DNA of 16,089 bases from a virus (lineage: Duplodnaviria; Heunggongvirae; Uroviricota; Caudoviricetes), in IMG/VR virus record IMGVR_UViG_2529293138_000003. One strand, written 5' to 3'. Shown one piece after another: positions 6,045 through 15,800 of the stretch. The position numbers and the translations under genes are program-made. The number at the start of each line of letters is the position of its first letter. Positions within the stretch are counted from its first letter, which is position 1. The notes below the pieces were generated by a model. It made no database searches, had not been told where the DNA came from, and saw only the letters and a list, made by a program, of their open reading frames with translations.

Positions 6045-6377
6045 ATGGCGACAAAAGAAGAGTTTAACCATTACCAGCCGCTGGGTAACAGTGATCCGGC
6101 TCATACAGCAATTGCGCCTGGCGGATTGAGTGCGAAAACGCCTGCAATGACCCCGCTGATGCTGGATGGCACTACCCGTAAGCTGGTTGTGTGGGATGGC
6201 ACCACCGACGGTGCTGCCGTTGGCATTCTGGCGGTTGCTGCTGACCAGACCAGCACCACACTGACGTTCTACAAGTCCGGCTCGTTCCGTTATGAGGATG
6301 TGCTCTGGCCGGAGGCTGCCAGCGACGAGACGAAAAAACGGACCGCGTTTGCCGGAACGGCAATCAGCATCGTTTAA
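6045..6377 (+). CDS. D: Head decoration protein gpD (110 aa), N-terminal part divergent from lambda
   Basis: ORF 6045..6377; the C-terminal two thirds ([30 protein letters not shown]...[10 protein letters not shown]) match lambda gpD; the N-terminus [27 protein letters not shown] differs at several positions from lambda as recalled. Confidence 0.9.
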
Positions 6378-6394
6378 CTTTACCCTTCATCACT

Positions 6395-6419
6395 AAAGGC
6401 CGCCTGTGCGGCTTTTTTT
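6395..6419 (+). terminator. Intrinsic-terminator-like hairpin between D and E: aaaggccgc-ctgt-gcggctttt followed by a T-run
   Basis: GC stem ggccgc/gcggc with a 4-nt loop, then seven T (6413..6419), read directly from the sequence; lies 18 nt after the D stop and 14 nt before the E start. Confidence 0.6.
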
Positions 6420-6432
6420 ACGGGAATAATTT

Positions 6433-7458
6433 ATGTCGATGTACACAACCGCCCAGCTGCTGGCGGCAAATGAGCAGAAATTTAAGTTTGATCCGCTGTT
6501 TCTGCGTCTCTTTTTCCGTGAGAGCTATCCTTTCACCACGGAGAAAGTCTATCTCTCACAAATTCCGGGACTGGTAAACATGGCGCTGTACGTTTCGCCG
6601 ATTGTTTCCGGTGAGGTTATCCGATCCCGTGGCGGCTCCACCTCTGAATTTACGCCGGGATATGTCAAACCCAAGCATGAAGTGAATCCGCAGATGACCC
6701 TGCGTCGCCTGCCGGATGAAGATCCGCAGAATCTGGCTGACCCGGCTTACCGTCGTCGCCGTATCATTCGGCAGAATATGCTGGATGAAAATCTGGCGAT
6801 TGCCCAGGTCGAAGAGATGCAGGCAGTTTCTGCCGTGCTTAAGGGCAAATACACCATGACCGGTGAAGCCTTCGATCCGGTTGAGGTGGATATGGGCCGC
6901 AGTGAGGCGAATAACATCACGCAGTCCGGCGGCACGGAGTGGAGCAAGCGTGACAAGTCCACGTATGACCCGACCGACGATATCGAAGCCTACGCGCTGA
7001 ACGCCAGCGGCGTGGTGAATATCATCGTGTTTGACCCGAAAGGCTGGGCGCTGTTCCGTTCCTTCAAAGCCGTCAAGGAGAAGCTGGATACCCGTCGCGG
7101 CTCTCATTCCGAACTGGAGACAGCGGTAAAAGACCTGGGCAAAGCGGTGTCTTATAAGGGAATGTATGGCGATGTGGCCATCGTCGTGTATTCCGGGCAG
7201 TACGTGGAAAACGGTGTCAAAAAGAACTTCCTGCCGGACAACACGATGGTGCTGGGTAACACTCATGCACGCGGTCTGCGCACCTATGGCTGTATTCAGG
7301 ATGCGGATGCACAGCGCGAAGGCATTAACGCCTCTGCCCGTTATCCGAAAAACTGGAAGACATCCGGCGATCCGGCGCGAGAGTTCACCATGATTCAGTC
7401 AGCACCGCTGATGCTGCTGGCTGATCCTGATGAGTTCGTGTCCGTACAACTGGCGTAA
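6433..7458 (+). CDS. E: Major capsid protein gpE (341 aa)
   Basis: ORF 6433..7458 (MSMYTTAQLLAANEQKFKFDPLFLRLFF...); length and sequence match lambda gpE. Confidence 0.97.
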   Translation: MSMYTTAQLLAANEQKFKFDPLFLRLFFRESYPFTTEKVYLSQIPGLVNMALYVSPIVSGEVIRSRGGSTSEFTPGYVKPKHEVNPQMTLRRLPDEDPQNLADPAYRRRRIIRQNMLDENLAIAQVEEMQAVSAVLKGKYTMTGEAFDPVEVDMGRSEANNITQSGGTEWSKRDKSTYDPTDDIEAYALNASGVVNIIVFDPKGWALFRSFKAVKEKLDTRRGSHSELETAVKDLGKAVSYKGMYGDVAIVVYSGQYVENGVKKNFLPDNTMVLGNTHARGLRTYGCIQDADAQREGINASARYPKNWKTSGDPAREFTMIQSAPLMLLADPDEFVSVQLA

Positions 7459-7460
7459 TC

Positions 7461-7478
7461 ATGGCCCTTCGGGGCCAT
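7461..7478 (+). other. Perfect 7-bp stem with a UUCG tetraloop (atggccc-ttcg-gggccat), 3 nt after the E stop codon
   Basis: Read directly from the sequence; followed by tgtttctctg and then the FI Shine-Dalgarno ggaggag. Confidence 0.6.
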
Positions 7479-7499
7479 TGTTTCTCTGTGGAGGAGTTC

Positions 7500-7895
7500 A
7501 TGACGAAAGATGAACTGATTGCCCGTCTCCGTTCGCTGGGTGAACAACTGAACCGTGATGTCAGCCTGACGGGGACGAAAGAAGAACTGGCGCTCCGTGT
7601 GGCAGAGCTGGAAGAGGAGCTTGATGACACGGATGACGCTGCCGGTCAGGATACATCTGTCAGCCCGGAAAATGCGCTGACCGGACATGAAAATGAGGTG
7701 GTATCAGCACAGACGGATACCGTGACTGATACGGCTGCTCTGGTCACGGTTGTGGCACTGGTGACGCTGCATACTGATGCACTTCACGCCACGCGGGATG
7801 AGGCTGTGGCATTTGTGCTGCCGGGAACGGCGTTCCGTGTCTCTGCCGGTGTGGCAGCTGAAATGACAGAACGTGGCCTGGCCAGAATGCAATAA
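7500..7895 (+). CDS. FI: DNA-packaging accessory protein gpFI (131 aa)
   Basis: ATG at 7500 preceded by gtggaggag; product MTKDELIARLRSLGEQLNRDVSLTG... as in lambda gpFI. The ORF track's upstream start at 7461 lies inside the hairpin and is unlikely. One codon shorter than lambda gpFI (132 aa as recalled). Confidence 0.9.
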   Translation: MTKDELIARLRSLGEQLNRDVSLTGTKEELALRVAELEEELDDTDDAAGQDTSVSPENALTGHENEVVSAQTDTVTDTAALVTVVALVTLHTDALHATRDEAVAFVLPGTAFRVSAGVAAEMTERGLARMQ

Positions 7896-7906
7896 CGGGA
7901 GGCGCT

Positions 7907-8260
7907 GTGGCTGATTTCGATAACCTGTTCGATGCTGCCATTGCCCGCGCCGATGAAACGATACGCGGGTACATGGGAACGTCAGCCACCATGACATCCG
8001 GTGAGCTGTCCGGCGCTGTGATACGTGGTGTTTTTGATGACCCTGAAAATATCAGCTATGCCGGACAGGGCGTGCGCGTTGAAGGCTCCAGCCCGTCCCT
8101 GTTTGTCCGGACTGATGATGTGCGGCAGCTGCGGCGCGGCGACACGCTGACCATCGGTGAGGAAAACTTCTGGATAGACCGGATTTCGCCGGATGATGGC
8201 GGAAGCTGTCATCTCTGGCTTGGGCGGGGCGTACCGCCTGCCGTTAACCGTCGCCGCTGA
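7907..8260 (+). CDS. FII: Head-tail joining protein gpFII (117 aa), GTG start
   Basis: ORF 7907..8260, Shine-Dalgarno gggagg at 7897..7902; MADFDNLFDAAIARADETI...; matches lambda gpFII. Confidence 0.93.
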   Translation: MADFDNLFDAAIARADETIRGYMGTSATMTSGELSGAVIRGVFDDPENISYAGQGVRVEGSSPSLFVRTDDVRQLRRGDTLTIGEENFWIDRISPDDGGSCHLWLGRGVPPAVNRRR

Positions 8261-8271
8261 AAGGGGGATGT

Positions 8272-8850
8272 ATGGCCATAAAAGGTCTTGAGCAGGCCGT
8301 TGAAAACCTCAGCCGTATCAGCAGAACGGCGGTGCCCGGTGCCGCCGCAATGGCCATTAACCGCGTTGCTTCATCCGCGATATCGCAGTCGGCGTCACAG
8401 GTTGCCCGTGAGACAAAGGTACGCCGGAAACTGGTAAAGGAAAGGGCCAGGCTGAAAAGGGCCACGGTCAAAAATCCGCAGGCCAGAATCAAAGTTAACC
8501 GGGGGGATTTGCCCGTAATCAAGCTGGGTAATGCGCGGGTTGTCCTTTCGCGCCGCAGGCGTCGTAAAAAGGGGCAGCGTTCATCCCTGAAAGGTGGCGG
8601 CAGCGTGCTTGTGGTGGGAAACCGTCGTATTCCCGGCGCGTTTATTCAGCAACTGAAAAATGGCCGCTGGCATGTCATGCAGCGTGTGGCCGGGAAAAAC
8701 CGTTACCCCATTGATGTGGTGAAAATCCCGATGGCGGTGCCGCTGACCACGGCGTTTAAACAGAATATTGAGCGGATACGGCGTGAGCGTCTTCCGAAAG
8801 AGCTGGGCTATGCGCTGCAGCATCAACTGAGGATGGTAATAAAGCGATGA
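8272..8850 (+). CDS. Z: Tail completion protein gpZ (192 aa)
   Basis: ORF 8272..8850, Shine-Dalgarno aaggggg upstream; length and sequence match lambda gpZ. Confidence 0.93.
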   Translation: MAIKGLEQAVENLSRISRTAVPGAAAMAINRVASSAISQSASQVARETKVRRKLVKERARLKRATVKNPQARIKVNRGDLPVIKLGNARVVLSRRRRRKKGQRSSLKGGGSVLVVGNRRIPGAFIQQLKNGRWHVMQRVAGKNRYPIDVVKIPMAVPLTTAFKQNIERIRRERLPKELGYALQHQLRMVIKR

Positions 8851-15740: not shown

Positions 15741-15758
15741 TGCAAAATGTTTTATGTG

Positions 15759-15778
15759 AAACCGCCTCCGGGCGGTTT
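15759..15778 (+). other. Hairpin aaaccgcc-tccg-ggcggttt in the I-J intergenic region, terminator-like with a weak T-tail
   Basis: 8-bp stem (5 G:C plus 3 A:T) with a 4-nt loop, read directly; followed by ta-tcgtttatggag, which contains the J Shine-Dalgarno. Confidence 0.5.
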
Positions 15779-15800
15779 TATCGTTTATGGAGCATGACGA

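Follow-up and report, generated by a model that had tools for sequence, protein, structure and literature searches.

The spacer between the major capsid gene E and the packaging-chaperone gene FI of this lambda-type phage carries a short RNA hairpin of which the stem, rather than the U-rich tail behind it, is conserved, and this conservation is that of a structure in the + strand RNA. The earlier note had argued that the spacer is not a neutral one. The comparison of E-family phages bears this out, as the stem is under purifying selection among the lambda-like copies, the two arms covary in somewhat more distant relatives, and stems of unrelated sequence are found at the same position across the E family. 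Tentatively, and with somewhat less than even confidence, we read the element as a terminator-type stem-loop on the sense late transcript that has been selected for its structure and that marks the 3' boundary of the capsid cistron, where, being read through by the polymerase, it may act as a barrier to 3' exonucleases and prolong the life of the D-E message.

The E-FI hairpin and its surroundings

The window, i.e. the complete 16,089-nt stretch of DNA that was analysed, corresponds to the left arm of a phage or prophage of the lambda type, with 96.7% identity to phage lambda along its whole length (for E, the DNA identity to lambda and 434 is 96-97%). The genes are arranged in the order nu1, A, W, B, C/nu3, D, E, FI, FII, Z, U, V, G/T, H, M, L, K, I and J, the last being represented by its start only. 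Successive late genes mostly lie between -155 and +15 nt apart, and gaps of more than 20 nt occur in only three places, namely D-E (55 nt), E-FI (41 nt) and I-J (61 nt). A terminator-like hairpin is present in all three of these gaps. The relevant features are collected in Table 1.

Table 1. Genes, hairpins and signals around the capsid region of the window
Feature	Position	Strand	Remarks
D	6045-6377		PF02924 (Pfam)
D-E hairpin, AAAGGCCGC-CUGU-GCGGCUUU, followed by a seven-U run	6395-6419 (stem-loop 6395-6416)	+	16 nt ahead of the E start; the record of phage 434 has it as a rho-independent terminator
E, major capsid protein, 341 aa	6433-7458	+	PF03864 (Phage_cap_E), E = 2e-70; TAA stop at 7456-7458
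E-FI hairpin, 5' arm AUGGCCC	7461-7467	+	only 7461 varies (A/G) among 118 lambda-like copies
E-FI hairpin, UUCG tetraloop	7468-7471	+	closed by C7467-G7472; C(UUCG)G loop of the UNCG class
E-FI hairpin, 3' arm GGGCCAU	7472-7478	+	the same in all 118 lambda-like copies; changes together with the 5' arm in relatives
Pyrimidine-rich, U-rich tail UGUUUCUCUGU	7479-7489	+	passes a loose terminator-like scan (5 U in 8)
FI Shine-Dalgarno sequence GGAGGAG, near-consensus	7490-7496	+	3 nt before the ATG at 7500; read from the sequence; RBS annotated in the phage 434 record
FI, DNA-packaging chaperone, 131 aa	7500-7895	+	PF14000 (Packaging_FI), E = 3e-50
FII	7907-8260		PF05354 (Pfam)
I-J hairpin, 8 bp, AAACCGCC-UCCG-GGCGGUUU (UNCG loop), followed by UAUCGUUUAU	15759-15778 (region 15756-15781)		

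The hairpin that the earlier note had described, with a 7-bp stem and a UUCG loop, is indeed present in the E-FI gap. It spans positions 7461-7478, starting at the third base past the E stop (with 2 nt between) and ending 21 nt before the FI ATG. Positions 7456-7502 read TAA-TC-ATGGCCC-TTCG-GGGCCAT-TGTTTCTCTGTGGAGGAGTTC-ATG, in which the part between the stem and the FI start is composed of TGTTTCTCTGT-GGAGGAG-TTC. The stem consists of seven Watson-Crick pairs, five of them G-C, and can be extended by at most three weak pairs. RNAfold predicted -13.2 kcal/mol for positions 7456-7483 (z = -3.1), a value equalled by none of 200 shuffles, and the hairpin persists in its 81-nt context, in the MFE structure as well as in the centroid. 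Within the window as a whole, nine distinct perfect hairpins of at least 7 bp were found (ten rows, in which one locus appears twice), against 7.6 +/- 2.8 in dinucleotide shuffles. In addition, 75 of the 16,064 sliding 26-nt windows of the + strand folded equally well or better, the better-folding ones lying mostly within GC-rich coding sequence, and the E-FI hairpin is absent from the 15 best non-overlapping folds of the window. The existence and the energy of the hairpin alone are not above chance; its non-random features are its location and its conservation. No Rfam family reached its gathering threshold anywhere in the window, and in a permissive scan the sole match on the hairpin scored 14 bits against a gathering score of 45, which is noise.

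Several other observations concern the same few nucleotides. A second perfect 7-bp hairpin, AGTTCAT-GACGAAAG-ATGAACT (7495-7516), spans the FI start codon. In lambda proper GTCC is found in place of GTTC, which results in a C·A mismatch; the FI-start hairpin is therefore polymorphic among lambda-like phages, and it could modulate the translation of FI. The first base of the E-FI stem is at the same time the first base of an ATG (7461), which is located 2 nt past the E stop in the frame of FI and is followed by an open frame up to the FI ATG, corresponding to FI with a 13-aa N-terminal extension. An analogous long form of FI is annotated in the GenBank record of phi80. This alternative start was rejected as the reason for the conservation of the element, considering that it is found in ~12 of 33 lineages, about as often as expected by chance, and lacks a Shine-Dalgarno sequence. 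Finally, three proteins of 441-467 aa (P0005, P0008 and P0009) carry both PF03864 (E) and PF14000 (FI). They were not accepted as E-FI fusions and are probably assembly indels, as the FI frame differs from that of E and the lengths do not fit.

Conservation of the stem from lambda-like phages to distant E-family loci

The closest relatives were represented by 118 lambda-like copies from IMG/VR and GTDB contigs, which were aligned with the stem left unconstrained. The stem is broken in none of them. Only one of its 14 sites varies, against 11 of the 27 other non-coding sites (Fisher p = 0.03), and this sole variant, A to G at 7461, turns an A-U pair into G·U. The variable non-coding sites outside the stem fall in the loop, the tail, the Shine-Dalgarno sequence and the spacer. 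The loop reads UUCG in 111 of the 118 copies and UUAG, UUCU or UUCA in the remainder, and the tail variants seen among close relatives include TGTTTCTCT, TGTTTTTCT, TTTCTCTCT and TGTCTCTCT. This pattern of substitution indicates that the stem of the lambda-like copies is under purifying selection. The element was also found in 3204 of 5426 complete E. coli genomes. Short contigs with 95-98% identity to lambda E, many of them with low coverage, were also encountered in the 'genomes' of unrelated organisms, among which Bradyrhizobium, Chromatium, Kitasatospora, Paenibacillus, an Akkermansia MAG and others (L087-L102, L105, L119, L121, L125, L132, L134, L136, L138-L144, L147, L150-L152, L155-L157 and L160); these look like lambda DNA contamination or spike-in.

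Moderately distant relatives, including N15, phi80, HK225 and elements of Kluyvera, Phytobacter, Trabulsiella, Buttiauxella, Enterobacter, Pluralibacter and Citrobacter, have the GGCCC/GGGCC core of the stem in common. Among the 24 distinct sequences of this set the two outer pairs covary, as AU/GU/GC and UA/CG/UG, respectively. Paired cells made up 94.6% of the total, against 35-57% when the 3' partners were slid by 1-3 columns, and the covariation score was equalled in 1 of 500 shuffles. The closing pair is G·U in 9 of the 24 sequences, where the other strand would have A·C. Given this frequent occurrence of G·U pairs, the constraint must be sought in the sense-strand RNA, i.e. the late transcript, and not in a DNA palindrome.

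Further out, at around 50 more distant loci with E-type capsid genes down to 34% protein identity, the place directly behind E is taken by GC-rich stems that are unrelated in sequence. The hosts include Providencia, Serratia, Aeromonadaceae, Amphritea, Glaciecola, Halopseudomonas, Ectopseudomonas and Parashewanella, as well as E. coli with its 21-like prophages, and 27 non-redundant IMG/VR contigs were added. Examples of such stems are CGGCGGG-GAAA-CCCGCCG, AGGGGC-UACG-GCCCCU, CGGGGGC-GAAAU-GCCCCCG, GUCACACC-UUCG-GGUGUGAC and AGGCGCGC-UGCG-GCGCGCCU. The loops of these other lineages are UCCG, UGCG, UACG, GAAA, GCAA or unrelated; UNCG and GNRA loops sit on unrelated stems in Parashewanella, Serratia, Ectopseudomonas and Providencia, and many lineages have other loops. 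When the best 30-nt hairpin within 60 nt past the stop codon was determined for 33 non-redundant loci, its mean energy was -14.7 kcal/mol, against -7.8 for shuffles and -8.5 for coding controls from the same loci (p <= 0.05 in 29 of the 33; Wilcoxon 5e-7). A post-E hairpin was recovered in all 27 of the more distant viral contigs. Moreover, when ranked by stability among all 30-nt folds of the 3.4-4 kb locus, it comes first in 16 of 50 loci, where around one would be expected, and within the top three in 25 of the 50. The loci themselves are phylogenetically related; the stems are not, and were therefore counted as independent solutions. In Erwinia endophytica (L117, 2512-2545) a small tandem duplication (CTGGCGTAACCCCTGGCGTAA) of the terminal 9 nt of E, CTGGCGTAA, is found just ahead of the hairpin.

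The tail has followed another course. In the window the stem, with 7 bp, 5 G-C pairs and a 4-nt loop, agrees with what is described for intrinsic terminators (a GC-rich stem of ~5-14 bp and a short loop), and the tail UGUUUCUC, having 5 U in 8 and being interrupted by a G at the second position, passes only a loose scan criterion. Closely related variants with a better U-tract exist (UUUCUCUC). Over the 50 lineages, the post-E tail is U-rich (at least 6 U in 10) in 20 and U-poor (at most 3 U) in 17, and in the Pseudomonas-type group the stem is immediately followed by the Shine-Dalgarno sequence for the next gene. Considering that 17 of the 50 lineages are U-poor and yet have kept the stem, it is the stem and not a full terminator that constitutes the conserved feature.

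A hairpin equivalent to the D-E hairpin, often with a GGCCGC core, precedes E in most E-family loci, the Pseudomonas-type ones included. It takes the form of an A-tract, a GGCCGC-type stem and a U-run, with a U-rich tail in 32 of 50 E-family loci, and it has the canonical terminator shape more consistently than the post-E hairpin. A weak, sub-threshold Rfam match to isrK, an Hfq-binding sRNA encoded by a Salmonella prophage, was obtained at 6348-6418 (17 bits against a gathering score of 50, E = 0.58); this match runs up to the D-E hairpin and is probably due to no more than a generic terminator shape. With one conserved hairpin behind the decoration gene D and another behind E itself, E is bracketed by two. 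It is a rather improbable idea that this bracketing, from the enterobacterial to the Pseudomonas- and marine-type phages, amounts to a conserved 'capsid expression cassette' of the E capsid family. Such a cassette would possibly be cut out of the 27-kb late RNA by processing, giving a stabilised message for D-E or for E only, or the hairpins could possibly act as insulators, so that the capsid protein is expressed by antiterminated polymerase only. If the latter were true, lysogens would be kept from leaking a protein that is sensed by host defence systems.

Possible functions: stabilisation, termination or insulation

The mechanism that we tentatively prefer would work as follows. The Q-modified polymerase would read through the hairpin while making the ~27-kb late mRNA, and the hairpin would fold in the finished RNA. 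An endonuclease would cut the U-rich single-stranded spacer or a site further downstream, after which the hairpin would mainly block the 3'-to-5' exonucleases (PNPase, RNase II). In this way the D-E segment of the message might outlive the distal part, which would add to an output of E that is set first by translation initiation. For polymerase that has not been modified by Q, the hairpin could act as a weak intrinsic terminator. Read-through, the barrier to exonucleases and any differential effect on E and FI are inferred steps; what the comparison shows is a stable, structure-conserved stem-loop directly 3' of a highly expressed cistron. The fact that a hairpin directly follows each of the shell-protein genes, D and E, is the arrangement expected of 3' stabilisers of the cistrons of abundant proteins. 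The I-J hairpin does not fit this rule, as the product of I, which we take to be of low abundance, is encoded ahead of it. Against a barrier also stands the modest size of the stem, which is just 7 bp with around -13 kcal/mol, and similar folds are found inside coding sequence. Furthermore, considering the size of its footprint, a ribosome terminating at the E stop would melt the hairpin 2 nt downstream each time. Similarly, the strong Shine-Dalgarno sequence that FI itself possesses counts against framing the hairpin as an element that sets stoichiometry, a framing that starts from the assumption, made in the earlier note, of FI acting in catalytic amounts. The classical account places the ratios of the lambda late proteins at the level of translation initiation, as the title of Sampson et al. 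(1988, PNAS 85:5439) has it. Consequently, the share of the hairpin in stoichiometry is probably secondary, and an effect on stability may be small. If the hairpin did measurably stabilise the capsid message, a layer of mRNA decay would be added to the late-gene stoichiometry of lambda; a stabilising role would also account for the frequent occurrence of hairpins right after phage capsid genes. With 18 nt, the element makes up a compact and portable module.

A rival reading of the hairpin is that of a leaky intrinsic terminator, at which some polymerases would stop after E so that less mRNA is made for FI and the tail genes, or which would insulate downstream late genes from polymerase that is not modified by Q, e.g. 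in a lysogen. We consider this reading to be on the unlikely side. The GC-rich stem with the tail behind it does pass the terminator-like scan, and good U-runs are found in many relatives besides, such as GCUCCCG-UUUUUC in 21-like phages, CCCGCCG-AUUUUU in Providencia and GGGCCG-UUUCUUUU in Phytobacter, in keeping with the 20 U-rich lineages; homologous hairpins are labelled as rho-independent terminators in N15 and HK225. However, the U-tract of the window is interrupted at its second position, and the 17 lineages that lack a U-tract keep the stem all the same. A ribosome coupled to the polymerase would, by established knowledge of translation, be expected to hinder folding only 2 nt past the stop. 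Moreover, a much better terminator-like hairpin is located in front of E; as a hairpin of canonical shape thus precedes the most heavily expressed late gene, such hairpins are not strong stops in lytic growth. A polymerase modified by Q is resistant to intrinsic terminators. The late genes of lambda form a single ~27-kb transcript from pR' that requires antitermination by Q (PMC10695390). This Q dependency of late transcription argues against much termination during lytic growth. In support of termination, a predicted terminator starts from the stop codon of the capsid gene in SPP1, an unrelated siphovirus (PMC6316719), and phage operons have been found to be tuned by weak terminators (PMC9163698).

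A further rival reading gives the hairpin a role in translation. By re-forming behind the ribosome that terminates on the very heavily translated E, it could stop ribosomes or 30S subunits from sliding further and reinitiating, be it at the FI start or at AUG 7461, which is in frame with FI, and it could prevent long-range pairing of the FI ribosome-binding site, FI then being made by independent initiation only. In every lineage the hairpin is situated between the capsid stop and the next Shine-Dalgarno sequence, to which it is directly adjoined in the Pseudomonas-type group. Most other late genes are separated by distances that are typical of coupling, E-FI being one of three exceptions, a strong Shine-Dalgarno sequence precedes FI, and AUG 7461 is buried in the stem. 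Yet the gap of 41 nt in combination with that Shine-Dalgarno sequence would already uncouple the two genes without a hairpin, a like hairpin precedes E, where high translation is wanted, and an upstream in-frame start is found at about the chance rate, all of which makes insulation of FI translation a rather improbable function. Very unlikely is the possibility that the hairpin plays no part in expression today, being a relic or the mark of a module boundary, e.g. a fossil terminator kept where the head-shell and head-completion modules were joined by recombination. The DNA similarity to 21-like phages stops inside E and does not extend into FI, which is compatible with a mosaic joint nearby, but a relic would decay and would show neither purifying selection and compensatory changes in the stem nor the repeated replacement by unrelated stems in lineages down to 34% protein identity. 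The perfect inverted repeat could, finally, act at the level of the DNA, as a cruciform or as the binding site of a dimeric protein, and the antisense strand folds nearly as well (-12.5 kcal/mol). We give this hardly any credence, as the frequent G·U pairs of the + strand (at pair 1 in 9 of 24 sequences) correspond to A·C mismatches in the DNA or on the other strand, and as the stems differ wholly between lineages, so that there is no common binding site. A site for RNase III was rejected, given that the stem has 7 bp and the enzyme would need ~two helical turns (~20 bp) of double-stranded RNA.

Comparison with annotated and experimentally studied hairpins

The element is of a known kind that has been annotated before, i.e. 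an ordinary terminator-type hairpin in the best-studied of phages. The RefSeq record of lambda and the record of 434 have no feature at the E-FI hairpin, and our literature searches yielded no paper on it. In N15 a stem_loop at 7053-7073, between gene 8 and gene 9, is described as 'putative rho-indep. transcription terminator', and in HK225 a 'rho-independent terminator' is found at 7009-7028; in all cases the label is a prediction. Both resemble the window in their location in the gap between an E-type capsid gene and an FI homologue, in the GGCCC/GGGCC core and in the length of 7 bp. They differ in the loop (AUUC and UGUC versus UUCG), in the closing pair (G-C versus A-U) and in the distance to the stop (9 versus 2 nt).

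Lambda itself offers a precedent in sib/tI, by which int is retroregulated: a 3' hairpin affects the upstream gene in a way that is set by the antitermination state of the polymerase. Retroregulation by sib involves RNase III cleavage of a long extended stem, whereas the 7-bp stem of the window is too short a substrate for that enzyme. Outside lambda, the terminator T-phi of T7, located after gene 10, is the textbook case of a proven partial terminator, T7 using its own RNA polymerase. In SPP1 the predicted terminator (8775-8815) starts from the stop codon (8775-8777) of capsid gene 13 (7803-8777) (PMC6316719). SPP1 and T7 have in common with the window that, in a long late unit, a stable hairpin immediately follows the gene of the most abundant structural protein. 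Their capsid families and polymerases are different ones, while the window depends on a host enzyme that is antiterminated by Q and has an imperfect U-tract.

CUUCGG hairpins are common in the intergenic regions of phages, and one located 5' of gene 32 of T4 stabilises the mRNA of that gene (PMC8948821, citing Tuerk 1988). The T4 hairpins share with the window the very stable C(UUCG)G tetraloop and the setting in a phage intercistronic spacer. This motif has several known roles, however, and the loop of the window is not strictly kept among lambda-like copies and is replaced in other lineages. Similar in arrangement to the preferred reading are the malE-malF REP element, studied by Newbury et al. 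in 1987, and the Rhodobacter puf hairpin, studied by Belasco et al. in 1985, both of which are reportedly experimentally proven intercistronic 3' stabilisers. As in the window, a stem-loop is positioned between a cistron of high and one of lower expression, and the mechanism proposed for the window, a block of 3' exonucleases resulting in segmental mRNA stability, is the same as theirs. These elements are longer or more complex than the 7-bp hairpin of the window, which is a putative stabiliser and not homologous to REP. By analogy, the logic of malE-malF and puf, together with the association of CUUCGG hairpins with intercistronic regions, would fit a role of the E-FI hairpin as a barrier to exonucleases.
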